A DNA stretch of 56,847 nt, the filler included, from Asterionella formosa (lineage: Eukaryota), in NCBI GenBank assembly GCA_002256025.1. It is 6 parts of 6 records of this genome, joined end to end, with 100 filler letters (N's around TTAATTAATTAA, not from the genome) between each part and the next. Parts side by side here need not be neighbours in the genome. Positions count along the whole stretch, not along the records: positions 9,506 to 18,902 come from NKIB01010701.1; 5 more parts are not named here. One strand, written 5' to 3'. Position 1 is the first letter of the stretch, and each line of letters opens with the position of its first letter. Below, in pieces: positions 4,451-50,214 of this stretch. The notes under the pieces were generated by a model. It was given only the letters and a program-made list of their open reading frames with translations. It was not told where the DNA came from and made no database searches. The position numbers were made by a program, and so were the translations under genes.

Positions 4451-5288
4451 GATTGATGTCGTCTCTAATGTAGATATATGTATATGCGGTTGTGGTATGT
4501 AGTTCTAAAAGCTCTGGTTGGGTTGGTGGAACATGTGATGGAGTAACAAGTAATGTAATGGAGTCAATTCTCATTCGTTCTTGCCGACTTGCATATTCTG
4601 AGTTCTTATTTTATACCGGTATTAATAGCTACCGGTACCAGGTAGTACGCATGATGTCTGCATGCAGCTGTGATACATCGCCCGATTGCTTGTCGTCAAT
4701 TTTTGTTCTTTGCTGGGGTTGATCATGCAGAGGATCGAGAATACAGTAGACTACTTACTATCGCTCTTTACTACCGGTACCGGTACCAGTACTCCAACTA
4801 TCATAAAGCAATTCTCACGACTGTTTTCCGCCCAAAGATTTTGTTATATCAATGACAGCACGGATTGCTGTATTCGGTTTCCCCGGATAACAGAATTAAT
4901 ATACAAAGATATTCATGTAAAAAAAGCGAATGTCCGACTTGACGTTTTCAATGGTCATCCATATATAGCAATTGATTTTTTTTTAAATTTATATTACAGA
5001 GTCTAAAACTATTTTTGTTCGATATATTCTATTGAGGGCTATTAAAAGAAACGTGATAATAGCATCGCCCATTATGAGCAGAACAAGCTAGCTCATTTTT
5101 TGGTAGGATGTTTCACTCTTCGATTGCTTGCGTAAGCATCAAGCAACGCCAAAAGTCATATCGGTAACTCTCCTTTGTTGTTCTTTTGCAGCCTGTATTG
5201 CTAATTACCTTTCCTCTAAGCTGGTCTTGCACAGTAACCGTTCGGCTTGCCTCTCCTTTTCCCATCGTTTTGTTTCTCGACGAAGAAA

Positions 5289-6254
5289 ATGCTCTCAATA
5301 TCATCAGTAATCAACTTGGGCGCCATCATGATCCTTCTAGCCCATTGTTTCCTTTGTGTCCATGGTCTTACTCTTCGAGTTGGAAAAATCAACATACCCA
5401 ATACCTTGCCCTCGGAAATTCTCACTCCCACCCTGTTTTCTCCACCGCACCAACTCCAGAACCTACAAGTTGGTGAATCATTAAACCCTATAGAAGGATT
5501 ACCTTTTCTTTCCATCAAACGAGTAGCCATGAATCCACCAATGTACATCTTTCGAGGCATATTGTGTCACAACGAAGACCGACAGGGCCTCATTGAATCG
5601 AGTTTACATGCTGGCATGGAGCTTGCAGAAACCAAGTCGGGAGCTGTTTCTCATCGAAGTGGGTCATATATGGCATGGGTGTCGCCGGAGGAGGAAGGAC
5701 GAAAGGATGATGCTAATAATCGAGGTAACCTTGTGGCGCAATTCATGACGAATCTCAACCGTGACCTCTTTGTAAGTCATGATGAAATATTTTCGGAACA
5801 TGTTCAAGTTGTGCGATATGAAAAGGGTGGAAAATTTGATCTACATCATGATGGCTTTGGTCGTATTGTAACTGTCCTTCACTACTTGAACGGAGTTGCA
5901 GGTACATGGTTTCCTTTTTGTCACGTTCAGGGCACCATGGAGGATGACAACAACAACAACAACAACAAGCCACCAGAAACGATTATAGATCAAATGAATA
6001 TGATTAAAACAAAGAGACTTGGAAAAGATGGTGTGTGGATTGTTGGAACGGAGAATTCCGAAATGCGAGAGGGTCCGCATGTCATTCGAGTAAATCCTGG
6101 CGATGCAGTAGCTTTCTACAATTACGAAAACATGATTATTGATGGATCTTCAAGTCCAGTCACAAACTGGAGATCATTGCATGCAGGTATGCCAACGAAT
6201 CAAGAAAAATGGATAGCAACCAACTGGTTTCGGCTGTATGAAGATGAAGAGTAA
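5289..6254 (+). CDS. 2OG-Fe(II) dioxygenase, prolyl 4-hydroxylase-like
   Basis: Q-V-V-R-Y...FDLHHDG (HxD), TVLHYLN, SLHAGMP, EKWIATNW. Hydrophobic N-terminus. Start could be 5289 or 5328. Confidence 0.85.
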   Translation: MLSISSVINLGAIMILLAHCFLCVHGLTLRVGKINIPNTLPSEILTPTLFSPPHQLQNLQVGESLNPIEGLPFLSIKRVAMNPPMYIFRGILCHNEDRQGLIESSLHAGMELAETKSGAVSHRSGSYMAWVSPEEEGRKDDANNRGNLVAQFMTNLNRDLFVSHDEIFSEHVQVVRYEKGGKFDLHHDGFGRIVTVLHYLNGVAGTWFPFCHVQGTMEDDNNNNNNKPPETIIDQMNMIKTKRLGKDGVWIVGTENSEMREGPHVIRVNPGDAVAFYNYENMIIDGSSSPVTNWRSLHAGMPTNQEKWIATNWFRLYEDEE

Positions 6255-6299: not shown

Positions 6300-9074
6300 T
6301 CAACATGATCGGACGCTAGTTCCAGCAAAGACATCTTCTGCTTGAATGGCATAGAGTGGATCTGGATAGCACAATTGCATCAGTCCAATCAGGCATTCGG
6401 GAAGTTCATCGTCAGCTCGGCCTTCAATCACAAATCCGAAAGTAACAAGGACCTTTTTGAAAAAGTTTTCCTTCATGTAGCAAATCGCTTGCTTGGCCAA
6501 ATAAGGAAAAGGGTGAAGGGAAATATCAAACTCAATACACGAGAGTTCGGGATGTTGATAAAGAAATCCGGTTTGACCAGGGCGCTTAATAAGAACAGGC
6601 TTTCCGTTGTACTTGGTGATCCAAGCTGGCATCCCAATCTCCTTAAGATTCTGCGCGTTGGGAACTAGCTTAAAGCGAGACATGAATTTCGAATCATTGG
6701 GTGCACGACGACACCATTCTTCGAATAACTTGACAGCATTGATCTTCGACTTTTGAATATCGCCATTGGAAGGTTCCTTTGATGGATCATAGTCATCTGC
6801 AGTGATTCTCCTCAGAATGTTACGTGTCTCTGGTGCCATGCCCATATAGATGGTAATAGTGTAACCGCCACCATCGTCAGTTGCTTTTGTTAGCTTGGGT
6901 GGATCTGTGGGGAGAGAGACAGAAATGACAAATATATCTGGTGCTCGCCACGTCTTTGGTTGATCATCGTCGTCAAACGTCACTGTGGGAAGATGAACCC
7001 GAGGAGCCATGTCCGGATAGCGATTCTGAGATTCAAAAATATCGGAACAAAGAACAGTATACAAAGTACCCGGCGAGGGAACCTTCTTCTTTCCATTGGT
7101 CATGTATCCATGGGATCGAATCATTAAGTCAGGGGTTGGCTTCCTCCATGCGGCGAATATGTGGCCATCTTTTTCAGGAACATCAGTGGGGTTATGAATC
7201 TCGACAGTTGTACTTCCAGCATTAGGTTTAAAGGTGGAAGCGACAGCCGTATTTTGAGAGGGTTTGGATGGCGGAACTGCTACACTGAACGCTTCTCGTT
7301 TAGTCGTTCTTCTGGTGACAGTTGCGGCGCTCGGTGTGGGTGCCTTAGCCGGTGTTGTCGCTGTCGCAGTATCAATGCCTTGACTTGGCACTTGCTCAAC
7401 TGCCTTCTTTTTGCCTTCTTTTGCTATGAGTACCCAAAGACCAAGATTAGCGAAGGTAACAATGTACCAAAAATTTGACGCTGTGGTCGAGGAAGCATGA
7501 GAATATACCATTGCCACGTTGATAATCACAACACAAATGTAAAGATCATTTTCTCGAATAGTAACCGTTGGACCAATATTCACTTCGGCGGCAGGCGCCA
7601 CCAAGGTTTCAGAAGCGGACGATGCCGTAGGCGTAATGAGTTCCAAGTTTATTAAATTTCGCGACTTGATGGCTCCAACGATCATATCATCCTCGTTCAC
7701 CTCACTTTCATCCACCTCACTCTCTTCCACTTCACTCTCGCCTTCGTCATCTTCCACTTGGACTTTTCGCGACGACACAGCATATTCTTGAAGCTCCCAA
7801 AGTCTATGCCCTCCAGCAGCCGCCGTCCCATCTGTCTCCTCCGGCGGTCTATGAACCGTATTGCCAAAAACACTAGTGTCGACATGAGTGGGATCTGCGA
7901 TAAGGAGCAATTGTGCATTATATGAATCCACGCTGCACATGACCACTACATCTGTCAGCGCCGCCAGCCATTCCATCTGCTCGGAGTGAGAGTCATGACA
8001 AAACTTCCATTTCGTTTCTCCCCGCACTTTAATGGAAATGGCAAAGGGCGTCGGTGCTCCTGAATGTCCCGTCGCTGCAGCGACGGTCGCTCGTTCCTTG
8101 ACCAAATCCAAAACCCCTCTGGGCGCATTGGGATCAAGATTGTCATTAGGGTTCTTCAACATGGCCAGGCTCGAATTTACATTGGCCTTTGCTTTTTCCA
8201 AATTGGCTGCGGCTGTTTCAAGCCATGAAATCTTTGTATTTTTGCTTTCCGAATCTGGTTTTCCTCCATCGTCCAGCAACAATCCCAATGGATCATCCAC
8301 TCGCTGCTCCTCCTTTTCCGTTTTGTAATACTCCACAATGGATCCGCGTAGAACTACTCTTCGGCGCTCCCATGCATGCAAAGAGAGTTTTCCCAATCCT
8401 GATCGTCGTTTCCACACAATGGCGGTCAGTCGGACCTGTTGTTCGTCGGGAGGTAGCTTCGCCGACTTTTTCAGGTTTTTCCTCTCTGTCAGGCCTCGTA
8501 AACTAGCCTTGACTCGGTCCTTGGCTCTAGGTGACGACGGGGACACCGGTAGGGCCGAAAGGGGCGAGTTCGTTTTGTTTGATCGGAGCACGCTCGACGC
8601 AGACAGAGTCGTCGTCGTCGTCGTTGCTGTTGTCTTGACATGGGCATTCGTCACGTCCACGTGAAGGTTCTTGACTGATGTGGCAAAGGCACTAGCGAGT
8701 CTTCCTGGAATCAGCAAGCTCCCCATCGTTTCCTTTGGCTTTGGGGGACTATCCCGGATGAGCTCGAGCTGCTGGTTGTCTTGTGCTCCAACCAGCGCCC
8801 GTACTTGTTCCGGAGTCAGAGTGGGATTGGCCTGGATGGCCAAGGCCATGGCTTTGGCTGTGCGAATCTCAGCGTCGGCTGCATCATAGAGCCTGGATTT
8901 GTGAGGGGGAGATGTTGAGCGTGCCGCCAACGGGCTCTTGTTGCTGTTGGCATCGTCAAATGATCCAGTCGTTGTCACATCAGATATCCTCCCTTGATGG
9001 TCAGCGCTTCCAGCGATGGAGCCTAGGACTCCAGCGGAAGCACCAGCCGCTGTTCCTCTGTTGTCGGTAGGCAT
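6300..9074 (-). CDS. PH-domain protein with two TM segments and a C-terminal EDR2-C (DUF1336)-like domain
   Basis: Long intronless ORF. PH signature (WKRRSG..WERRRVVL...EQMEWLAAL), a hydrophobic pair near aa 515-555, and C-terminal RFKLV, KYNGKPVLIKR, GFVIEGRADDELPECLIG. First ATG at 9074. Confidence 0.85.
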   Translation of the reverse strand: MPTDNRGTAAGASAGVLGSIAGSADHQGRISDVTTTGSFDDANSNKSPLAARSTSPPHKSRLYDAADAEIRTAKAMALAIQANPTLTPEQVRALVGAQDNQQLELIRDSPPKPKETMGSLLIPGRLASAFATSVKNLHVDVTNAHVKTTATTTTTTLSASSVLRSNKTNSPLSALPVSPSSPRAKDRVKASLRGLTERKNLKKSAKLPPDEQQVRLTAIVWKRRSGLGKLSLHAWERRRVVLRGSIVEYYKTEKEEQRVDDPLGLLLDDGGKPDSESKNTKISWLETAAANLEKAKANVNSSLAMLKNPNDNLDPNAPRGVLDLVKERATVAAATGHSGAPTPFAISIKVRGETKWKFCHDSHSEQMEWLAALTDVVVMCSVDSYNAQLLLIADPTHVDTSVFGNTVHRPPEETDGTAAAGGHRLWELQEYAVSSRKVQVEDDEGESEVEESEVDESEVNEDDMIVGAIKSRNLINLELITPTASSASETLVAPAAEVNIGPTVTIRENDLYICVVIINVAMVYSHASSTTASNFWYIVTFANLGLWVLIAKEGKKKAVEQVPSQGIDTATATTPAKAPTPSAATVTRRTTKREAFSVAVPPSKPSQNTAVASTFKPNAGSTTVEIHNPTDVPEKDGHIFAAWRKPTPDLMIRSHGYMTNGKKKVPSPGTLYTVLCSDIFESQNRYPDMAPRVHLPTVTFDDDDQPKTWRAPDIFVISVSLPTDPPKLTKATDDGGGYTITIYMGMAPETRNILRRITADDYDPSKEPSNGDIQKSKINAVKLFEEWCRRAPNDSKFMSRFKLVPNAQNLKEIGMPAWITKYNGKPVLIKRPGQTGFLYQHPELSCIEFDISLHPFPYLAKQAICYMKENFFKKVLVTFGFVIEGRADDELPECLIGLMQLCYPDPLYAIQAEDVFAGTSVRSC

Positions 9075-9405
9075 TGAGATTGACACTTTAGCGCAGTGAT
9101 GGAAGGAGCAAGTAAGTGAATGTATTGTTGGGCAGGCTCAACAAATGGCAAGCCAACGGGCGGTTAGCACGGCTTGAGATCAACAAATGACGACAAGGGG
9201 CGGAGCAAAAAGTCGTTTTCATGTACTGGTACCTGCTACCGGTATTATACCACATCAGACATCAATTTTGGCTGTTGGGTCGTGTCGTACATACTGTGTA
9301 TTAGTGGATCACTGTTGTAGCTAAGGCGTGATGACGATGGCAGTGCTTCGTGGTTTGAATCATACCAGTAAATATCAGCCATGTGTAATCTCGTCTTCCG
9401 ACTAC

Positions 9406-9505
9406 NNNNNNNNNNNNNNNNNNNNNNNNNNNNNNNNNNNNNNNNNNNNTTAATTAATTAANNNNNNNNNNNNNNNNNNNNNNNNNNNNNNNNNNNNNNN
9501 NNNNN
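9406..9505. other. Artificial scaffold-joining spacer
   Basis: N44-TTAATTAATTAA-N44, with stops in all six frames. Identical spacers recur every ~9.5 kb. Confidence 0.97.
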
Positions 9506-10141
9506 GATGACAACCCCAATGATCTTGACATAGACCATGGATATGACAACAATAATGCCAATGACTCCAACGCTCACATTGCAGGAGTGTATGACAATGA
9601 CAATATTGAATATGAAAATGTTAACGAACCTGATGAAGAACAGACCGAACAAGAAAACTACAATGAATATGGAAACGAAATCGAATTACAAATGATCCCT
9701 GAGCAAGGAGACATCGAAACTGAACCCAGCGAAGCCGAGGATACCAGTAATGACTTTGAGAATGAAATGAATGAACGCTATGGGATTTGCGGTGAAAACT
9801 ATGACCTCCTTCCCAGGCGTCCACGTGATTACAGTCACTTACACACCACACTTGAGAGTATTATCATGACACAACACAGTATGAAGAAAGTAATTAAGCT
9901 GCTTAGGGAGGCAGGTATAGATGCAGTACTGCAGGAGCTCCAACAGCTTCACGATCGAGAAGTCATAAAGCCCAAAAATGCATCTGAGTTGTCAGGAAGC
10001 GATAAAGAAGGGGCACTGCAATACCTAATGTTCCTAAGAAAACAGAAGCGTAATGGCACAATTAAGGGCAGAGGATGTGCAGATGAAAAAAAACGAGATT
10101 ACACCTCCAAGGAAGAATCCAGCTCACCCACAGTGGCAATT
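9506..10141 (+). mobile_element. Ty1/copia pol fragment (INT-RT linker and RT N-terminus), truncated
   Basis: IMTQHSMKK...DAVLQELQQLHDREV...ALQYLMFL..KRNGTIKGRGCAD...SSPTVA is the start of copia RT. It breaks off abruptly. Confidence 0.85.
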
Positions 10142-11762
10142 TGGTGTTCTGTTGCTCGCTTACTAGTACTACTCTGACTACCCCCAGTATACCTCTTCCT
10201 ACCTGCTACTGGTACTCTGTATATATATATATATGATAAAATGTTATTGTCATATGATGTACCAGTACACATGAAGAACTCCCGCCCAAAAAGGGGCTTA
10301 AACAGCCAATTTGCTACCAAAATCCTTGCGTATAAATAATGATACAAATGGGTTATGACTTACACCAGCAATTGAATGGTCTGCCGGTAAATAATTAGTT
10401 CCAATGGACGTAGAAAATATTGATGCAAACAAATTTCAGAAACAACACCGGTACACGTAGTCATGGAAAACAATGGACATATCGTGCATTGAATATTTTC
10501 GAATTATGTATATGCGAATCTGATCATCTCAACAATACCAGACGTTCAATATTGAGAGTGCCTTTGAATTTTATAAATGTACAACACTTGAGATATTTAT
10601 ATATTTACAAATTTTATGACTATATACATGGCAGATATATTTGAAATCGTTATGTCATGTTAACAAACAATGCCTGCTTCATGAAAAGAAATATCGTAGG
10701 AAAGCACATGACAGCCAAGAAAGGAAAGTTTACTTAATACATAACAAAAAACATTGTGGCTTCGACACATTACGCCTTCGAAGGATGGAGTATGTTTAAG
10801 GTAATGAAGCCATCAATGTGGTAGCTACTTGGATGACAATCGTTGGGAGGTAGGACAACAACAAATTGTAAACTAAACTCACATTTCCTTTTTTCTCAGT
10901 TGATTCAACAGCTCGTTTTGATTCAACGGCTTGTTTTGCTTGTCGGGGAGCACGAATGTAAAACAAAACAAAATTGTTAAGTGATTTTGTCGTTGGACCT
11001 ATTCACTTCTGATGGAACATAACTGACGGAATCGCCACGTTTACCTTCTCTCAAAGTTAAGCTAATGAAAATGAATCGGAAAGTTTTATTCGACATTATT
11101 GGAAACCTGAAACTTCCTTATTCAAGAATTTACTGACAATTTATTATTACATACTTTTGCATCACTTGCTTTGATTTGTTGTGTAAGTGAAGCAAGCAAG
11201 ATGATATGATGGAGTGGCGTGATGTTGTGATGTCAGTGTAACATGTCTCGCTAACAAGTCATTCCTTCTCATTGTTACTGTAACTGCAAAGGACAATAAA
11301 ACCGATCAAACAACGGAATAGTCGGCGAGTTCAGAATGACACAAACAGCAGGTAAAGAGACGGAACATTAGTAAGGCATTGCTTGGCGCAAGATTCAGAA
11401 AAGAGGAAGAAAAGGGCGAGACAGGAATATAAATTGAGATGAGTGGAGAGGAGAGAAACATTCCTCGGGTAGCTGTCAAAACAGAAATATCATTGTTAAA
11501 TTTGTTAATTAAATTACGATCCATTCCAATCCTTTTTGAACAATGCTGACATTTGATTAGAATTATGATCATGTTTAAGATAAATTTACGATGAAACAAT
11601 TCACATGATAGCATAGAGTTGAGCTGGTTTTAGGATGTGTTGTAGTAATAATTTACATTGGGCGATCACGAGAACAAGTGAAAATAATATGAGAAGGTTT
11701 ATGATATTGATGAGAAATGTTGTTGATCAGTTTATATACATTGTGTGATGATAGTGTTCTTA

Positions 11763-11927
11763 ATATCATTATATTTCAAGGTCGGTAAAATATTAATAAA
11801 TCATCAAAGTTATAGGATACCTTGATCATAGTTTTGATCCAAAAGTTATCATATATACGAAAATCCTGTGCCACTTAGTGTATGATACCCTTGATCCTGT
11901 ATGCATGATACTTTTTATTTGCAGACG
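11763..11927 (+). repeat. Dispersed repeat homologous to the segment upstream of the Harbinger transposase (47496-47660)
   Basis: Collinear similarity, e.g. CTGTGCCACTTAGyGTAyGATACCCTTGATCCTrTAT...TTTTTATTTGCAGACG at both sites. Confidence 0.8.
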
Positions 11928-14248
11928 CCTTGTCCTTCATTATACTTGATTGCTTCGTTTTTTCTTTTGCAGCACCTCACAGGTTGTTTGTAGAGTTTAG
12001 GCGGTCGCCCAGAGCTGGCTGAGGGAAATGTGCACAGTTTTCCCGATGTGACAATCAACCTGAGTTGTAACTTTCCAACAGTAAGTGACAACAAGCAGAC
12101 CGGCTAATGAAACACAACTTTGTCCACCAGAAATCTCACTCAGTTGTCATTTTCATTTCTCTATTTTCCTGTGGAAGCAGCATCCAATAACGATGATATG
12201 AGCAAGGATTGGGTTGGTTTGAAAGAAAACTGGCGTATTGAAAGTCCAAGAAAAATTCCTCCAAGAAGGCAGGCGGACATTGGCAATCAGACAAGGAACC
12301 AATGGGCGACAAGTTCAAGCAAAGCTACAATCAACTGAGCGGCAGGGACAGGGGAAGCAACAAAGGGGTATTTCAATGGACAGGTGTAGTGATGGAGGTG
12401 TGGAAGATTCCGATTCGCAGATGGATTCTTGTTCGGAGATCAATTTCGGAAATGCCATTGCATGCAAATCGCCTACAGATCCGTCAGATCATCAAAGTGC
12501 CTCAAAACATATGATAGTATCTAATCATTGATTCTTATAAATTTGTTATCATTATACTTGCTCATTAGTTGACCAACGCAACCAAAAACACCACCATTGT
12601 TAATCAGCTGGTTGATTTAACATTGCTAGTGGTTTTCTTGTGCTATACTATGGTGCTCGAGGGGTATCTTAATGGCCGATTTTTCCAAAATTAGAAAGGA
12701 GTGACATAAAGTACTATATGCATTTGTGGAGAGGAGGATCCACTAAAACTTCAGTGAAACTCGAAAAAGAAGTTTCACCTATAGGAAAAACAGGCTAAAA
12801 CAACCCGGAAAATACAAACGTTTGACTACGGCAAAGGTTGCATGTGTGGGCACTTGGTACACCCAAAGTCGACTCATTCGGTATGTATTTAGCGTTGTGT
12901 GTACGGAATACCATAGCCTACGTAGACATTAACACACCCTCACCAGCAGATTCAGGTAGAAAAGTGGGAGGAGAAAGGGGAACAGCAGCAGAAGCCAGGC
13001 AAGCATAGTAGTTAGATGGACCAGGGAGGGAAGGAGGAAAATACGATATGGGTAAGGGGTAAGGGGGTTGAGCATAGGGACACTGCAAGATGGGTTGCTG
13101 GTAGGGTTAGGGTTACCGTTGCCCTGACGTAGGGTTAGGGGTAGGGTTACGCACCCTCAGTGTTTGGGCATCAAGCTTGGGGATTATGTGGAGGTTGGGC
13201 GCCGCCGGTGGACTGTGAACCCTCAGTGATGGAGCAGGGCTACAAAGGGTGGGGTTTGGTAGAGGGGAGAGAGTCGTAGTCAAGAGAATTTCAAGGAGCT
13301 GCTGGTGAAGAGTGGCCTTGTGGTGGGTGGTGGTGAGTGGGGCAACCGGAGACTGAGTGGTGGGGTGTAACAATGCATAGGGAATGTCCTGCAGACTGGT
13401 TGTGATGAGATCTGTGGACGAATTACTAGGGAGGGTGACTTTGGTTGGAAACCACGAGACATTATTGCAGATGTGTATTGAATGGGTGTCCCACATCCAT
13501 ACTCGGTAGCAGCGGTAGGATTCCACAGCAGGGCCCACATACCAGCCGTCAAGAGCATGCGGAGACCGCCAGCATGTTGTGCTGTATTGGGGTTTGGCGT
13601 GGACAAGGACCCGACAACCAGGGGGCGCCAAGGGGACATGGTTGTAATTGTATTTTCCATTGACCTGTGCCCAAGCAGACAGTTTTGGGTTAATGCGCAA
13701 GCCACGGAGGAGATTAAGAGTAAGTTCAGCTTGATCTAAGAGTTGGTCCCACAGGTGAAGAGGAAAATCTTTGTCAACACCACAGAGGCCAGCAATGAAA
13801 TGATTTTGAAATGTTCGAATTGCTCATTTGGCAGCATTACAGCGATGGACTGCCGGAGGGACCAACTGAAAAACAATATCTTCAGCATCCAAGAAATCTT
13901 TGAGGAGTGTAGAACACTCGTTGTCAGGGCGTTGCAGTTTGAGGCAAAGGCTTGATTGGCACAATCTTTGGTGCAATTTCTTATAAGCGCCAAGGAGACA
14001 AGAAGCGGTTATGAAAAGGTTGGACGAAAATGAATGTGGACCGTAGGTTTTGACGTGTTTGGTCAAGGTGGCCTTTGATGATGGCGACGGAATGTGGGGG
14101 ATGTTTGCGTAAGGTAGCCAAAGTAAGTACTGGAAAATTGACAAGATATCCATTGAGTAACGCTTGTTCCAAGGTTAAAAGAGCAGGAGAAAAAAGATCT
14201 GCATGGGCAAAAGAGACAAGAGCAGATGCGGGGGGACTACCAATGGCA

Positions 14249-15159
14249 NNNNNNNNNNNNNNNNNNNNNNNNNNNNNNNNNNNNNNNNNNNNNNNNNNNN
14301 NNNNNNNNNNNNNNNNNNNNNNNNNNNNNNNNNNNNNNNNNNNNNNNNNNNNNNNNNNNNNNNNNNNNNNNNNNNNNNNNNNNNNNNNNNNNNNNNNNNN
14401 NNNNNNNNNNNNNNNNNNNNNNNNNNNNNNNNNNNNNNNNNNNNNNNNNNNNNNNNNNNNNNNNNNNNNNNNNNNNNNNNNNNNNNNNNNNNNNNNNNNN
14501 NNNNNNNNNNNNNNNNNNNNNNNNNNNNNNNNNNNNNNNNNNNNNNNNNNNNNNNNNNNNNNNNNNNNNNNNNNNNNNNNNNNNNNNNNNNNNNNNNNNN
14601 NNNNNNNNNNNNNNNNNNNNNNNNNNNNNNNNNNNNNNNNNNNNNNNNNNNNNNNNNNNNNNNNNNNNNNNNNNNNNNNNNNNNNNNNNNNNNNNNNNNN
14701 NNNNNNNNNNNNNNNNNNNNNNNNNNNNNNNNNNNNNNNNNNNNNNNNNNNNNNNNNNNNNNNNNNNNNNNNNNNNNNNNNNNNNNNNNNNNNNNNNNNN
14801 NNNNNNNNNNNNNNNNNNNNNNNNNNNNNNNNNNNNNNNNNNNNNNNNNNNNNNNNNNNNNNNNNNNNNNNNNNNNNNNNNNNNNNNNNNNNNNNNNNNN
14901 NNNNNNNNNNNNNNNNNNNNNNNNNNNNNNNNNNNNNNNNNNNNNNNNNNNNNNNNNNNNNNNNNNNNNNNNNNNNNNNNNNNNNNNNNNNNNNNNNNNN
15001 NNNNNNNNNNNNNNNNNNNNNNNNNNNNNNNNNNNNNNNNNNNNNNNNNNNNNNNNNNNNNNNNNNNNNNNNNNNNNNNNNNNNNNNNNNNNNNNNNNNN
15101 NNNNNNNNNNNNNNNNNNNNNNNNNNNNNNNNNNNNNNNNNNNNNNNNNNNNNNNNNNN
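14249..15159. other. Assembly gap inside the copia element
   Basis: Run of N without the linker sequence. Confidence 0.97.
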
Positions 15160-16161
15160 AGGGGGGTATGACCACCAGTCTGAATAGCAGCATGAGCACC
15201 ATGATATCCCACAGTGGTTGCAATTAACATGCGTAAGCATTCCTTATCCCCGTGGATGAAATTTGAGCAAAAATTCGCCCATGTATGATTGGTCGAGGCA
15301 CAGTCACGCCAAGTTTGAAGACTATGAGCGTAAACACCGGCCTGTTCCAGTGCGGAAAGAGTCAATTGCATGACAGTGCTATTGGATAAAGGTTCAACGC
15401 CGGCATCGGCAATGGCACGGGTATGTTTGATGCGTACCCATAAAGTCTTGATAGGTTCATCGGGTGTCCAAGCATCAGCTAAACGCATGCGGTTAAATTC
15501 GAGATCATCGGAACTTAATGTGGCATAAGTAATCTCTAAAATGAGAGAGCAAAGACACCACAGTGAGGTCGGCATATCTAAAAGTAGCATCTTCGAGAAC
15601 ATTGCAGTTAGTAGGGTCGATGGCCGTTAAAATTTGTTGACGAAGAAGGGCTTCGCGGATTTGAGAATATTGGCGGAATGCATCAATGGAGGTGTCGTAG
15701 AGACGGTTGGCCGCAGTGATTTGTGACTGTGTAGCAGTGGCACTGTGCGGCGGTTGGGTGCCGGGATGGTCGGATGGTGAAAAGGGTTCACCAGCACGTA
15801 GGAGATAAGGCGCAGCAGCCATGACAATGCCAAGAAAACCGTTAGCAACACCGCCACTGGTACAATGTACAGAGCGCGCATTGGCGAAGATTTCCTTCCG
15901 AAGACGGGTCATGGTGAGGGCTGAAGGTTTACCATTGATCGGCGTTAGGAGCGGATGAGGGAGAGGGAAAACGGCAGAGGAAACAAGGGGAGTCGCCATG
16001 ATGTATGAAGGTTGGAAAGAGGGGCAAAGGAGAGAATCGAGAAAAACGCGGGCAATTGGGGGTGGGGCACAGGCGCGTGAAAAACAGCGATGACTCCACC
16101 AATGTAGGCCGCAATGGCACGAGTGCTGCGGAAAACAGGGAGAGAACAGATATTGTAACTC

Positions 16162-16487
16162 TGTTGAGGGAAACCTTATCGTGAATAAAGTTGAGTTACA
16201 ATATTATGGCTATTCTATTGCTACTAAACGTAATGCGTTTGGGTAACTTATTGGGATATGGGCACGGAATCCCGTAAACGTAATGCGTTTGCGGTGGGTT
16301 TTTCACTCCCGATAGCATCGTCTTTTAGGGTTACCGAAACCAAGACACTGTTTGGTTTGCGTTGTGGTCCACCGTTAGCAACGGCCTTACATAGCACTCA
16401 CGCATGTATCTAATCTGGTGGTTACGCCGGTATGTATCGTACGTTGCGTGTACGGAATACCAACTTTGACACACATATGTTACAACA
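16162..16487 (-). repeat. 5' LTR (326 bp) with TGTTG...CAACA termini
   Basis: 5-bp terminal inverted repeat directly upstream of the gag leader. Internal duplicated AAACGTAATGCGTTTG. A 34-bp block is shared with the PPT-adjacent sequence at 12880-12913. Confidence 0.75.
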
Positions 16488-16775
16488 TTAACCCCCCCCC
16501 TATCTGTACCGGTAGCCTCGAAGACAAGAATACTCGCACACGGCCTTTTCAGAATTTTTAAGGCTATTATTATATTATATCGACTAAATACAACTCCTTC
16601 TCAATTGAACACTTTTGTTCCTTTCCTCTCGTTGGGTTCTTCCTGATGGCGCTGACATTGTTGCTTCTACTTTTTGATTCTTGTTCATGCGTCATTTGAT
16701 TTCACGGATAAAAAAGATCTTAACGTGTGTCGAGTTCACTCACTTCCACCAAGTAATTTACTAGTTCCCGCCAAA

Positions 16776-17563
16776 ATGAGTGCAGCAAAGGGTGGAGCTC
16801 GACGGTGCAATGGTTCTCAAAGATCAGTTTCGACACAAAGCTGTCCCATCTGCAAGCTGAGCCTCCCTTCTGTGGTACGTGTATTGGTTTGTTATTTCCA
16901 TTGTCGACCGACCAAGATCCTTATTTTGTCAGTGGCTTGCATATAGCATATCTTGATGGGTGCTCACCCTATATTCAGCGCAACCTTGACCCTGTCGATT
17001 ATGAAAGGGCGATCTTCAAGCACATGCTAAAATGCTCTGCCTCAAACAAAACACCAGCGGCAGCCTCATCACGAAACCTATTGACACCAAGACTTATTAG
17101 GAAACGCTCTGAATCACAATCAAATGTCGAGAAGGGAGCATGTACTTTCCAGCAACTTCCGTCTGTTTCGTGTTCATCGGCACCCAAAACTCCATCCCTC
17201 ATTTATAAATCGGCATTTGGTATAGAATCATACCAAAACCGGAGGCATAAGATTCCTAATATCAACACGGGAAGAGGAGAGGTATTGTTGCCATTGGTAC
17301 GTATGTCAAACGAGTCTGCTTTTGAATATCTGAAAATATGTGGTTTTCTCGCTAATAAGTTTTCTACTCAGTGCCTTGTTCATCAAAATCCAGAAGACCG
17401 ATTCATGGCAAGTCCTGTTGCGCCGAACACATCTGGCCTGACTTTGAAAGAAAGAGCGGGTATTGCTTCTGCTTATGCCATTAGAGCTCAAAGCAACACA
17501 TATTTGATGCACGGGGAAGGTATGCAAGGTTTCTTAGACATGTGCTTGAAAGAAAGTGACTGA
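16776..17563 (+). CDS. Hypothetical protein with N-terminal C2HC (UBZ-like) zinc finger, 2 exons (16776-16874, 16979-17563)
   Basis: Phase-0 intron GTACGT...GCTCAC...TTCAG. Splicing creates CPIC-x21-HMLKC. Confidence 0.65.
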
Positions 17564-17613
17564 CGAACATGTGCCATAAAATAGAATAAAATGTGCTTAC
17601 TATTGTTGCTATG

Positions 17614-18902
17614 TTATATCTTATTTACAAAGCCTAAAATAACATCATCTGCATCGTTGTGGTTGTTATTGGGTGGGGCCGATGGGGAATACATGCGCTC
17701 CCTCAACCAAAGTTGAGCAATCCACTTATCATTTTCCGCATTTTCCGACAAAGCTTCTCCACAATGCAACGTTCGGATATCAAATGGAACGTTTGGCACA
17801 CCACCAGCTGCAGGGAAGAAAAGGAGGGCAGATCCTTTTTTGGGTTGACTGATTGAATAATTGAAATGAGAATATTGTTAGATGAGCGCGCGCGCATTTT
17901 CAATGGATGTTATCAGCACGACTTCTTCTTACACTCGTAATGGGCCGCTGCTCCCACCTAAATCCCGAAACATTGTCGCACCCCCTTCTTCCTCGGATAG
18001 ATCTGTCAAGTATACCAACAAGGTCGCTGTACGCTGTCCACCTCGCTTCTCCAATTCTGCTGATGGAGCCAGCGCATCTAAATGCCACGTGAATTTTTCA
18101 TTTCTCCGATATCTCACAGTCTGTGGTTCTTCCCATTGCGTAATATCATCCAATCCCATTAGTCGTGAAGCCTTCGCCATGAGTTCTGGAACAGTCCTAT
18201 AGTGATGGAACCACGTAGTAGAAGTCCGTTGGGCCTTAGCTGACGCGTCCTTCCCCACTGTCTTTGAGCGGCTTTCCATGGGGCTAAAAGGTGATTTTAA
18301 GCTGGAGAGTGATGATTTTTGAATGTATTCGTCGCATTCTTCGGGCGTGAAAAATTCATCAACGACAATTACTAAGGGATCAACATGAAGTACCCGAAAC
18401 TTGTCAAAGGCTGGGATCCGGGACAGAGTAAATGCCGCAGGTTGTCCCTTGATGGCCAAATTACCAATGGGTGGTGACTGAAGCATATCGGCAAGGTTAG
18501 ATGACTTCGCTGGCGACGATGACAAAAGATCCTCCAACGTCATATCAGGAGCGTCGTCCATTAAATAATTAAAAGATCGAAATCCATAGATACCAGCTAG
18601 TCGCTCATAAATCTCCGTGCTGAGATCTTGCGCTTTGCTGTTGTCTCCGTAAAATGCCAACAAAGTCTTTGCCACCTCTGGTTCCAGTTCTGGAAATGCT
18701 GCAGTGTCATCGTGTCCCTTCGAAGTACCAGGCGATGGATGGCTGGCATCAACCATATTTCCTCCACCAAAGCCACCTGTAGGTGATGCTAATTTGGTAC
18801 CCTTTGTCTTCTTTTTCGCTTGCAAAGCAAAAGAAAGCAACGTTTCTTTCGACCATTGGGTCGAAAAGGCCGGCACCCGAGAAACAACAGAAAAGGAAGC
18901 GA
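17614..18902 (-). CDS. Prolyl 4-hydroxylase-like 2OG-Fe(II) dioxygenase, 5'-truncated, 2 exons (>18902-17933, 17848-17614)
   Basis: DPLVIVVDEFFTPEEC, RTSTTW, EEPQTVRY, WHLDA, GGQRTATLLVYL, RTLHCGE, KWIAQLW. An 84-nt GTAAGA..CAG intron restores V-QPKKGSALLFFP. Confidence 0.9.
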
Positions 18903-19002
18903 NNNNNNNNNNNNNNNNNNNNNNNNNNNNNNNNNNNNNNNNNNNNTTAATTAATTAANNNNNNNNNNNNNNNNNNNNNNNNNNNNNNNNNNNNNNNNNN
19001 NN
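18903..19002. other. Artificial scaffold-joining spacer
   Basis: N44-TTAATTAATTAA-N44. Confidence 0.97.
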
Positions 19003-20461: not shown

Positions 20462-20841
20462 ACTAGGGGCCCGGGAATACCGGTACTAATACGAAGAAGT
20501 GGAGAAATGGAGAGGAAAGTACCGGTATGCAAACATGAGTTCGTAAACATAACTTACAGCATAATATATAATCTGATGCCAACATATCAACGACGGTCAA
20601 AGCAAAGCTTAATAATATATATGACGGTATATAGACTCGTATGTAAAGGATTGTGCATCCCACATCGAGCCGCTTGTCACATGTACAAAGCCGGGGGGGG
20701 GGGGCACTTACAACAAGTTTTGTCGTTGAGATTGAGACTGAAAAATTGTATGCTAATCCCCTATTATCCTCCCGATTTTGACTCCATCGAGAATTCGGGG
20801 GCATATTAGTACGGTAGTCAAAATTGTAACTCTTCGAAAAC

Positions 20842-27897: not shown

Positions 27898-28394
27898 GCC
27901 TTCTAGGTGACGAGCGAAGCGCAGAGTACTGCTACTCGTTGAGGCACCAGCAATGGCGCGTTATAATGCAACTGTAAAGGGTATCAGCATCAGCAGCCCT
28001 GATGTTGTGGTAAGCATAAATATCCCATACCTGATACCTGGTACCCGGTACCTGGTACCAGTACCTGGAATATGCATAGAGCTACCGGTACAGTATACTG
28101 CAATAATTTTGCTGGATTGCTTATGGGCCGGTGGTGTTGAAACTTTTCTACTACTGGTACCCGGTACATAAACTAATTTGCATTTTTGGCTACGACAATG
28201 CATCGCGCTTACCGGTATATCATTACCCGGTACATGGACTTTTCATACATGGCTGTTGTAGCCTTTTGGCGTGGCTCCTATGTAACCCCGGCATGCAGTA
28301 GAAACAATTCGAAAAACATCATTTACCGGCAGCAAGTGCAAAAAACGTTCACCCACTGTTGCACTTCCTGTCGACACACCAACCGACAGGAAGC

Positions 28395-28494
28395 NNNNNN
28401 NNNNNNNNNNNNNNNNNNNNNNNNNNNNNNNNNNNNNNTTAATTAATTAANNNNNNNNNNNNNNNNNNNNNNNNNNNNNNNNNNNNNNNNNNNN
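28395..28494. other. Artificial scaffold-joining spacer
   Basis: N44-TTAATTAATTAA-N44. Confidence 0.97.
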
Positions 28495-28708
28495 ATCGAA
28501 GGGCAGCACATCGGCGAATGATAAGTACCTGGTACCCTTGATTTCAGCTCATTAGACTACCGGGGAGAGTTCAGCAATACTGGGTTGTTCCGGTCGTTGC
28601 TCATTTGTGGGCCTAATGCATCGTCTAACATAGCGGTATCATGTCAGTCTATAGCATTCTAGAGGTATCAGGTACCAGGTACCTGGTCCCGGGTACCGGT
28701 ACCTGGTA

Positions 28709-28808
28709 CCTGTAAGCTGGGGTAATTGTGCTGAAACGAAAAGTTTAGCTATCTTTATCCTATACATATTAAAATGTTTATTTAAGCCAAATGACCGCAA
28801 ATTGCTGG
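28709..28808. mobile_element. ~100-bp MITE, copy 1 (TA-flanked, CC...GG ends)
   Basis: TA|CCTGTAAGCTGGGGTAAT...ATGACCGCAAATTGCTGG|TA. Collinear with 35363-35464. Confidence 0.7.
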
Positions 28809-37887: not shown

Positions 37888-37987
37888 NNNNNNNNNNNNN
37901 NNNNNNNNNNNNNNNNNNNNNNNNNNNNNNNTTAATTAATTAANNNNNNNNNNNNNNNNNNNNNNNNNNNNNNNNNNNNNNNNNNNN
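37888..37987. other. Artificial scaffold-joining spacer
   Basis: N44-TTAATTAATTAA-N44. Confidence 0.97.
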
Positions 37988-38538
37988 TTGTTATTATGAT
38001 ATTGTGGTGAACAAGTCCTTGCTTGCTTTGCTTGCTGACCTTACTTTCGCAATTCGGATCACCTTCCCGCAACCGGTAATAAGAAAAGGAAGACTCCGTA
38101 CTCCGTATACTACCGGTAGATTGCTCCCTGGTGCGTGTGTGTGCGCGTCGGTGGAAGCTAAGATACATACCAGTACATAATCATCATCCTCATCGAGGAC
38201 CATCAAAATCTGGTAGACTACCAGCTACCAGCTACCAGGTACCTGGTTCCAGGTTCCAGGTACCAGGTACCAGGAACTTACTATACATAAATGATAGAGC
38301 TATGAATACAACGCCATGAATAAAATATATTCACGATACGTATCTGGTATAACAAATGTTCTACTCTATAACTCTGATCAACACTGTTGAAGGGAACCTT
38401 TTTAACGTAGTTGAAACCACCACTGAAAAAAATACGCACAGGTAGTACCGGTAGTAAGTAATATACGGTACACAGGTTGCTAATGTGCCAGGTACCTGCA
38501 GGATATCGGTAATCCACGAAGGATAATGCGAACAAAAT

Positions 38539-39267: not shown

Positions 39268-40157
39268 TGAAGAACATCGTTGGAAAGCAGAAGAGCGATG
39301 TGTTAGGAATATTGTGATGCGACAATATTCACAGCATGTTATTTGCCTTTTACATATTGCAGCTCCGAAAATTTCAAACTATTTCTTGCGGGTCCGAGTT
39401 CTGTCCAATAGCTAGTTATACTTGATGAAGAAGAGGACGCGTTCGGTATCATAATGTTCCTTTAGTTGTTTCGAAGTATAAAAAAATGCTCTATAATACT
39501 CACGGCGCCATAGTTCTTTTCTTTCTTCCTCACGGGGTAATTTTATGAGGCGAACACACGGCGACTAAAGAATGATTCTAGCTTGTGCCTGGTGACACCA
39601 AGAAATGAGAATGTTGACATGAGAACACATCAATTAGCATGCTACGTATGTGTACTGGATTTCTACTGTAGCTACAACCTCAAGCCATTTGTTGGACCAT
39701 GGTACCGGTACTTGGTACCATGTACCAGGTACCTGGTACCGTTCTGGTAGACCATCACTTATGCTACCAGGTACATACAAGATAAAAGCAAAAAAGGGTG
39801 TTTATGCAGTACCTGGTACCAGGTACCTATGAGAAAAGAAAGTGTGACACATCTGTACCTGGTACCGCTATAATTAGCTGAAACACATCGGGTACATGCT
39901 TTTTTAGGATACGTAGTACGCTTGCGAAATGGAATATTTTTAATCGCTGCAATTAATTCTTCACGATCATTGTATTCGCGAGAACCGCCAAGAATTTGCG
40001 GGAAGAAAGCGATGCAACCACGTCACTATAGCTTACCAATACAATTCTTGTGGTATACCTGGTACCGGCACATCTATATTGAAAGAAGCCTTCGTCGATA
40101 CGCTATGTAGTATGTTGTTGGGACTATTGATGTGTAGGTACCAGGTGACAACCGGTG

Positions 40158-43651: not shown

Positions 43652-43863
43652 CTAGCGTATTTATTCGAATATAGTGGTCTTAGCAGTTTTTGACTGGTAC
43701 TCCGAACCACTGTCCACGATATGCATCAGTCGACTGTTAGTCATAGCTACCGGTTAGTAGATGACGAGCACACTTTCACAACACGGTACCAGTACCTGGT
43801 ACCTGGTAACAGGTACCAAACTCTCAACTCTCAGCAACTCTCCACAAGGTACCATACCTGGTA

Positions 43864-47368: not shown

Positions 47369-47468
47369 NNNNNNNNNNNNNNNNNNNNNNNNNNNNNNNN
47401 NNNNNNNNNNNNTTAATTAATTAANNNNNNNNNNNNNNNNNNNNNNNNNNNNNNNNNNNNNNNNNNNN
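47369..47468. other. Artificial scaffold-joining spacer
   Basis: N44-TTAATTAATTAA-N44. Confidence 0.97.
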
Positions 47469-49176: not shown

Positions 49177-49272
49177 ACCATAAAATTATCTATTTAGAAA
49201 CTAAAAGAAAAGTAGTATGAGCATAAACTAAATTAGATTACTGGGCACCAACATCTGTGAATAAAATGTCCG

Positions 49273-49812
49273 CATTCCCGTCATCCCCTTGTTTCAATAC
49301 CCGGTCGGAAAATGACGTGGCTACTGTGAAACCATACCGATTCCTACGTTAGTACTGTTTGCCCTACCAGCATTCCCGTCATCCCCTTGTTTCAATACCC
49401 GGTCGGAACATGACATGGCTACTGTGAAGCCATACCTATTTCTACATGAGTACTGTGAAACTGTAGGTTTGCCCTACCAGCATTCCCTTCTTCCCCTTGT
49501 TTCAATACCCGGTCGGAACATGATGTGGCTACTGTGAAACTGTACAATACTACGTTAGTACTGTGAGACTGGCTGTAGGTTTGCCCTACCAGCATTCCCT
49601 TCTTCCTCTTGTTTCAACACCCGGTCGGAACATGACGTGGCTACTGTGAAACTGTACCTATTGCTACGTTAGTACTGTGAGACTGTAGGTTTGCCCTACC
49701 AGCATTCCCTTCTTCCCCTTGTTTCAATACCCGGTCGGAACATGACGCTGGTACTAAGAAACTATACCTATTACTACGCTGGTACTATGAAACTGTAGCT
49801 TTGCACTACCAA
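49273..49812 (-). repeat. Tandem repeat, 5 units of 98-112 bp, with exon plus intron-like structure on the minus strand
   Basis: Unit starts at 49273, 49371, 49481, 49593, 49703. Constant 54-nt block plus a variable GT...AG block. Confidence 0.9.
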
Positions 49813-50214
49813 TCTAATGTATATTACTGAGTATGTTGGTGCTGCATTGCTTCCGATCCAGCACTCGCCCACTGTGTAATCCTTTGTTGACAGACCATTA
49901 TCCCTTTCTGCTTCCTTGTTTCTCTTGACATTCGCATGCTATCGATAGTGCAATATATCATTTGTTATCTGGGCGGAATGGCAAATGTTCCGAGTGCTAC
50001 AAGGAATGGAACGATCTTGGTTGTGAAGGGGATACCAATTGCAGATTTTTCAATCAGGTAAAACCTGTTTCTATGGCGTATTTCATGTCTGTTCAAGAGA
50101 CAACGGAAAAGTAAGGAACGACTCTTACTGGTTAGATACTTTGATCATGATGACAAAGGCAAGGAGACGAGGCTAGATGACAGTGTCCTTGATTTTGTTC
50201 TCATCAAATTCTAT

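Follow-up and report, generated by a model that had tools for sequence, protein, structure and literature searches.

Almost all long terminal repeat (LTR) retroelements prime reverse transcription with a host tRNA, and the mode of priming is one of their defining traits. Every LTR element requires a 3' OH that is annealed immediately beside U5, and the first nucleotide to be copied is the last base of the LTR. To our knowledge, self-priming has been proven experimentally for Tf1 and Tf2 only and has been predicted for a few other lineages. In Tf1, the first 11 nucleotides of its RNA pair with the primer-binding site (PBS), and RNase H cleaves between nucleotides 11 and 12 (PMC7175516). Among Ty1/copia elements, self-priming was predicted computationally for the TAR lineage of plants, with Houba and Osr-1 as members (PMC6317226). 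The fungal GalEa elements possess a Conserved Hairpin Site, in which CHSeq1, palindromic and placed at the end of the LTR, pairs with CHSeq2, 12-41 nt downstream of it; according to the authors, a search of U5 for a sequence complementary to this site found none (PMC5445492). Here we report on a Ty1/copia element of the diatom Asterionella formosa (assembly GCA_002256025.1), which lies on the minus strand of a stretch of 56,847 nt composed of six joined parts, called the window in the following, within the part taken from NKIB01010701.1 (positions 9,506 to 18,902). A self-complementary site at the end of its LTR probably serves a diatom Ty1/copia family as its device for minus-strand priming and would operate in a Tf1-like manner.

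On the minus strand the sequence runs through ...CCATAATATTGTAACTC AACTTTATTCACGATAAGGTTTCCCTCAACA to the LTR end and then continues with GAGTTACAATAT CTGTTC.... The LTR tail ...CCCTCAACA stops at 16162 and GAGTTACAATAT, the putative PBS or arm A', begins at the very next base (16161-16150), directly 3' of the LTR. It is the perfect 12/12 reverse complement of ATATTGTAACTC (16204-16193), hereafter arm A, the proposed self-primer, with 31 nt (16192-16162) between the two arms. The initial annotation had noted this perfect complement inside the LTR, 31 nt upstream of its end, and both sets of coordinates were confirmed. Its observation that the 3' end of the internal 12-mer points at the last LTR base was correct as well, C16193 pairing with the first PBS base, and so was the absence of a TGG-type PBS, since no TGG follows the LTR end of the window copy. 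The 5' edge of arm A overlaps a CATAAT motif (16203-16208, minus strand), a candidate initiator or transcription start region, and an inner stem-loop (16172-16192, minus strand) is predicted by folding between arm A and the LTR end.

Within the window, only the two arms match the 12-mer exactly. When one mismatch was allowed, 0.32 matches were expected in the window and one extra match, with one mismatch, was present at 20821. The RNA from 16215 to 16130 folds at -21.2 kcal/mol (z = -6.1, with none of 200 shuffles as good) into a three-part hairpin composed of a 6-bp outer stem, the 12-bp arm stem and a 9-bp inner stem. In the window as a whole there were 6 places with a perfect 12-nt inverted repeat whose loop measured 3-60 nt, versus 0.18 expected from a Markov simulation, so that the inverted repeat taken alone is only mildly unusual. 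The evidential weight lies in the exact abutment of the arm to the LTR end and in its conservation. No tRNA genes were found in the window. At position 16191 the window copy has an A on the minus strand versus a C in nearly all other copies, seen as T>G on the plus strand in 57 contigs of run X1.

Relatives of the element were sought in metagenome contigs by an alignment of the gag N-terminus, and the priming site itself was not used in the search. Alignment A1, with 38 gag relatives, was too diverse for the locus search and a closer set of 10 (A2) was used. This gave 21 loci (L001-L021) with gag identities of 37-82%. Eighteen of them shared the same layout upstream of gag: CATAAT, an arm of 9-13 nt, a stem-loop ACCTTTAT...CAAGGT, a pyrimidine-rich run ending in CAAYA, and the complementary arm. 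In L019 the LTR ends in TTCA instead of CAAYA. CATAAT did not vary among the 15 sequences of alignment A3, and the arm helix always terminated inside or beside it. An A/T-rich, semi-conserved motif (AATAGAAT, AAATATAG, AAATTA) was located 10-30 nt upstream of CATAAT; one may speculate that it is TATA-like or a poly(A) signal.

Complementarity over 9-13 nt was present in 17 of the 21 relatives and over 11 of 12 positions in one more. Twelve relatives had perfect helices of 12-13 pairs, like the 12 pairs of the window itself: L001-L003 (arm A ATATTGTAGTTC, PBS GAACTACAATAT), L005 and L007 (TTTAACTAGCTC, GAGCTAGTTAAA), L008 (ATTTACTAGCAC, GTGCTAGTAAAT), L013, L014 and L017 (TTTATCTAGCTC, GAGCTAGATAAA) and L020 and L021 (TTTACTAAGCTC, GAGCTTAGTAAA) with 12 pairs each, and L019 (ATTTACGTAGTTC, GAACTACGTAAAT) with 13. 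With the window included, about 10 combinations of arm and PBS sequences were observed; the arms differ between lineages yet stay complementary. The complementarity is kept in evolution by compensatory changes.

For the pair counts, alignment A3 was excluded because it was gapped in one arm only, and A4 (15 sequences, 14 of them distinct), cut to the arms, was used. Nine of the 12 pairs of the arm helix had changed on both sides and 2 never varied, and 95.2% of the cells were paired. Over all 17 pairs of A4, 95.4% of the cells were paired and the covariation score was 0.443, versus 0.120 +/- 0.023 in shuffles, of which none in 500 scored as high. When the 3' partner was slid by 1-3 columns as a control, pairing fell to 28-44%. 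RNAalifold, with no structure supplied, returned the same two helices, with compensatory change in 8 pairs. As a further control, we scored viral and prokaryotic contigs, in which the flanking motif was matched 113 times by chance; at these sites the complementarity was 3-8 nt and in no case 9, whereas 13 of the 14 gag-anchored sites that matched the same motif had at least 9 nt. The check that the initial annotation had proposed, covariation between the PBS and the 12-mer of the LTR, was thus positive in 18 of 21 relatives with compensatory change in 9 of 12 pairs, and it supports the tRNA-free self-priming that the annotation had suggested.

The family can be placed, by its predicted proteins and termini, among the diatom Ty1/copia elements, as had been proposed at the outset: integrase precedes reverse transcriptase (RT), the RT is of the RVT_2 type, gag is separate, the LTRs have the form TG..CA, and relatives occur in diatom genomes. 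With the integrase piece, 849 longer relatives were retrieved at E <= 0.001, many of which carry the precomputed label PF07727 (RVT_2), and some pol relatives are named as coming from Fragilaria crotonensis, Cylindrotheca closterium and Fistulifera solaris. The related pol sequence P0001 has an integrase SH3-like domain (367-423) before RVT_2 (840-957), which is the copia order. In the relatives gag occupies an open reading frame (ORF) of its own, about 350-370 aa long, and 1402 gag relatives were retrieved at E <= 0.001. The copia placement rests also on the precomputed PF07727 labels and the names given by the sources.

As in Tf1 and Tf2 of Schizosaccharomyces pombe, the PBS directly follows the LTR and is complementary to a short upstream stretch of the same RNA, 11 nt in Tf1 and 9-13 nt in the diatom family. 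Tf1 has a stem-loop between primer and PBS, the U5-IR, and the predicted inner stem-loop of the diatom family matches it in position; Tf1 lacks a tRNA-type PBS, and none is apparent in the diatom family. The Tf1 primer is the 5' end of the RNA, freed by RNase H; in the diatom family arm A would correspond to such an end, and RNase H may cut behind it. The two differ in their proteins: Tf1 and the sushi clade are Ty3/gypsy elements, whereas the diatom family has integrase before RT and an RVT_2-type RT, and neither the order protease, RT, RNase H, integrase nor a gypsy-type RT, which characterize that clade, was found. The plant TAR lineage is also Ty1/copia; its elements have no tRNA PBS, and self-priming was predicted for them from sequence. 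It is a lineage of land plants. Fungal GalEa elements, too, are copia elements without a classical PBS and with a conserved hairpin at the boundary of LTR and leader, and they belong to a 'branch 1' of copia in which the CoDi-like elements of diatoms are placed as well. Both GalEa arms, however, are described as lying downstream of the LTR, whereas the diatom family has one arm in the LTR and the other starting from the first post-LTR base. The window element, with its partner arm inside the LTR and 31 nt upstream, thus falls outside the definition of the Conserved Hairpin Site. The CoDi-like elements (Maumus et al. 2009) are likewise diatom copia.

From these features the following scheme can be proposed, in which the transcription start, the RNase H cleavage and the primer extension are inferred. 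The element RNA would carry arm A (16204-16193) near its 5' end and would probably start at or beside the invariant CATAAT; a diatom initiator consensus was not found in the literature searched, and CATAAT would be an initiator by inference. The RNA would fold back, aided by the conserved inner stem-loop, and arm A would pair with the 12 nt directly after the LTR (16161-16150). By analogy with Tf1, the RNase H of the element's RT may then cleave at the conserved C|A, behind arm A. The freed 3' OH would be extended from A16162 across the 31 nt of U5/R, setting the LTR end and yielding a strong-stop DNA of 31 nt. Strand transfer and the later steps would proceed as in other LTR elements. In retroviruses, part of the PBS in progeny DNA is a copy of the primer. 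Similarly, plus-strand synthesis would here copy the primer while it is still attached to the minus strand, so that a change in arm A could enter the PBS of the progeny. Such writing of arm changes into the PBS would explain the free co-drift of both arms.

A host tRNA as primer appears unlikely from the sequence comparison, since it would keep the PBS constant and the PBS varies. No sequence other than arm A is complementary in all cases to the bases following the LTR, and the site varies by lineage in step with arm A. We also set arm A against general tRNA anatomy, a comparison that is not a test, and no anticodon-arm register fitted.

Several observations weigh against a Tf1-like priming device or limit what can be concluded. 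No device could be recognised upstream of gag in L006 or L018, and L015, which is cut by the contig start and retains the PBS side only, gives no support. L004 has the same arm as L001-L003 with a PBS, GAACTACAATTT, that carries a mismatch and leaves 10 contiguous pairs, and L009, with the same arm as L013, has one internal mismatch (11/12). The helices of L010-L012 (arm A CGTCTAGTTC, PBS GAACTAGACG; 10 pairs) and of L016 (GTCTAGTTC, GAACTAGAC; 9 pairs and one G-U) are short. The inner stem, with a family consensus of ACCTT...AAGGT, is pairable in 95.7% of the cells and appeared also in the RNAalifold and single-sequence folds; its sequence is, however, conserved, with compensatory change in none of its 5 pairs, so that its pairing is unproven. 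Should each PBS be copied anew from the primer, covariation alone is no proof of selection, though it would still reflect priming. The Pfam scores of the pol domains were under the curated cut-offs (25.7 versus 27; 20.9 and 28.5 versus 31.6). Finally, the window copy is non-functional, and activity can therefore not be read from it.

Three other explanations have to be weighed against Tf1-like self-priming. The boundary hairpin might serve the RNA in another way, in packaging, dimerisation or the control of translation or polyadenylation, while a host RNA such as a tRNA fragment or a small RNA pairs after the LTR and acts as primer. The first 7 PBS bases are indeed fairly similar across lineages (roughly G-A/T-R-Y-T-A-S), internal tRNA fragments are described as primers of other copia lineages (PMC6317226), and the GalEa hairpin, to which its source assigns no known role, occupies the place of the PBS (PMC5445492). 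We nevertheless consider this explanation unlikely: a host primer would fix the site, whereas the post-LTR site differs at most positions between lineages and its intramolecular partner changes along with it. Moreover, the helix begins at the first post-LTR base in every relative, as the 3' end of a primer requires, and no other candidate PBS was seen after the LTR.

The complementarity data fit pairing in cis and in trans equally well, and the duplex of arm A and PBS could also prime by a route other than that of Tf1: with a co-packaged RNA in trans, with an RNA started upstream and cut on both sides, or by extension of the hairpin without a defined RNase H cut. In all cases, however, the helix stops at the invariant CATAAT, as would be expected if the RNA begins there, and the conserved spacing of 31 nt and inner stem-loop favour a defined fold-back structure; these alternative routes thus seem quite improbable to us. 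Chance, or a quirk of one decayed copy, could be invoked because the window holds six such inverted repeats and its copy of the element is degenerate. This idea is already refuted by the 18 of 21 relatives in which the layout is conserved with compensatory change, and by the 113 control sites, and we give it virtually no credence. Self-priming in the manner of Tf1 remains the reading that we favor.

Concerning the element itself, the 5' LTR extends over 16162-16492 on the minus strand and ends in CAACA (16166-16162). Its start is not the TGTTG at 16487; homology to L002-L004 puts it at about 16492, where the sequence is (T>G)GTTAAT with the first base changed. Contig depth profiles and loose ends indicated a repeat boundary near 16162 and a consensus start beyond 16462. 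The LTR end at 16162 is backed by homology, as CAAYA of the relatives precedes either the complementary arm or, in L005 at 737, unrelated sequence; the CAATA at that place fixes the LTR end. The LTR start of the relatives (TGTTAAT or TGTTGA) is fixed because it is preceded by differing flanks in L003, L004, L010 and L017 and by the pol C-terminus and a polypurine tract (PPT) in L002, L005, L007, L009 and L013, where the PPT GGTGAGGGTG is kept directly before the TGTT. A U3 segment of 168 nt (16224-16391, minus strand) within the 5' LTR is absent from the LTRs of L002-L004. It contains two copies of a palindrome-like CAAACGCATTACGTTTA motif and is the deepest stretch in run X1; below 16224, 72 contigs diverge, so that the segment is a module common to several LTR variants.

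Downstream of the PBS, gag was translated from an ATG at 15999 (15160-15999, minus strand); it carries a frameshift near 15620 and enters a block of 911 N (14249-15159), which spans the end of gag, the protease and the N-terminal region of the integrase. The integrase core and the C-terminal SH3-like region of pol follow at 13113-14248 (minus strand), with 77% identity to P0001 and an in-frame stop at 13824-13826. By comparison with the C-terminus of P0001, the integrase tail is fused to the extreme pol C-terminus (..NYYACLAS..ESAGEGVL) at 12935-13112 (minus strand). RT and RNase H are missing from the window copy, the integrase tail being joined almost directly to the pol C-terminus when compared with P0001. 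The PPT GGTGAGGGTG (12944-12935, minus strand) adjoins the start of the 3' LTR, TGTTAATG... at 12934, of which a remnant (TGTTAATGTCTACG...; 12879-12934, minus strand) resembles the 5' LTR over the first ~56 nt only. No second copy of the 5' LTR was found in the window, either by a direct-repeat search or when the LTR and the whole element were compared with the window by blastn. A 35-nt match of 86% at 12879-12913 was considered as a second LTR and rejected, as it is the start of the truncated 3' LTR. With its gag frameshifted, RT and RNase H deleted and the 3' LTR truncated, the window copy is a dead relic, in which the proposed priming device is intact.

Just upstream of the 5' LTR, within 16493-16510 (minus strand), we noticed a stretch of nine G (16500-16492), preceded by a few more purines (ACAGATAGGGGGGGGG). 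It bears a loose likeness to the PPT context of the family, and the depth of run X1 is slightly raised there. This purine run may be the remnant of an upstream copy.

The relatives provided some additional observations on the family. In L005 (707-760), an LTR end (CAATA) is followed by a polypurine tract of ~15 nt and a new LTR start, an LTR-PPT-LTR arrangement from which the whole internal region is gone. The contigs of L001, L002 and L013 (5.4-6.1 kb) are circularly permuted or overlap at their ends and contain one LTR between the pol end and PBS/gag, which fits a multicopy element collapsed in assembly, a 1-LTR circle or elements arranged in tandem. The pol ORF of L002 (657-4556, 1299 aa) extends ~130 nt into the LTR and its stop lies immediately before CATAAT (4552-4560); P0001 has the same LTR-encoded tail. 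If this tail is expressed, the poly(A) site has to lie downstream of that point, which would fit a very short R. None of the contig ends of L001-L021 resembled a transcript start or a poly(A) end, and no relatives were detected in viral contigs by pol alignment. The first 60 nt of L019 (1-60) are apparently a sequencing adapter at the contig start.

The family is a very abundant repeat, as the depth shows. Summed over the contigs of the best DNA run, the depth was ~1e5-1e6 across the LTR compared with ~650 in the flank beyond 16517, values that do not represent a copy number. Public runs that contain this stretch come from freshwater, lake and 'algae' metagenomes. Contigs of the RNA runs X18 and X19 cover gag, the leader and parts of the LTR. 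One RNA contig of X18 (~90% alike) that breaks exactly at 16161 was considered as an RNA end; this was rejected, the break being ascribed to assembly at the repeat boundary.

Outside the element, the window contains two host genes, one for a protein with PH and EDR2_C domains (6300-9137, minus strand, E = 1.3e-36) and one for a 2OG-Fe(II) oxygenase (5238-6254, plus strand). A tandem array of ~110-nt units was found at 49272-49877, and scattered GGTACC-rich repeats with a period of 14 nt at 28022-28717, 38220-38291, 39696-39753 and 43780-43823. The N filler at 9406-9505, 18903-19002, 28395-28494, 37888-37987 and 47369-47468 consists of paired blocks of 44 N, 12 nt apart, and recurs every ~9.49 kb.

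Since a prediction exists for the TAR lineage, the idea of a self-primed copia element is not new. A full-text literature search, with subscription journals, Repbase and GyDB entries and supplements outside its scope, returned no report of self-priming for diatom copia elements, and a term search found no mention of a PBS in the CoDi paper (PMC2806351) or in the network paper of Llorens (PMC2774666). We regard the family as a new case of self-primed LTR retrotransposons, in diatom Ty1/copia, with a type of mechanism that is already known.

If our interpretation is correct, self-priming would exist in a second superfamily outside plants, in stramenopiles. This would explain why annotation tools based on the PBS fail on these elements, and it would provide a simple sequence rule for spotting intact copies and for defining lineages in diatom genomes, together with a set of naturally occurring primer/PBS pairs on which the rules of self-priming could be tested. 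Diatom copia elements are described as major and stress-responsive components of these genomes (PMC2806351). As a tentative extension, which we hold to be possible and still doubtful, self-priming might be the general and possibly ancestral mode of the large CoDi-like clade of diatom Ty1/copia elements, the PBS being rewritten in each round and primer and PBS drifting together freely. Each lineage would then own a private primer/PBS pair, and these very abundant elements would be freed from dependence on host tRNAs and from silencing based on tRNA fragments. Such a general mode would also support the view, raised in PMC3601003, of early LTR retrotransposons as hairpin-primed elements.

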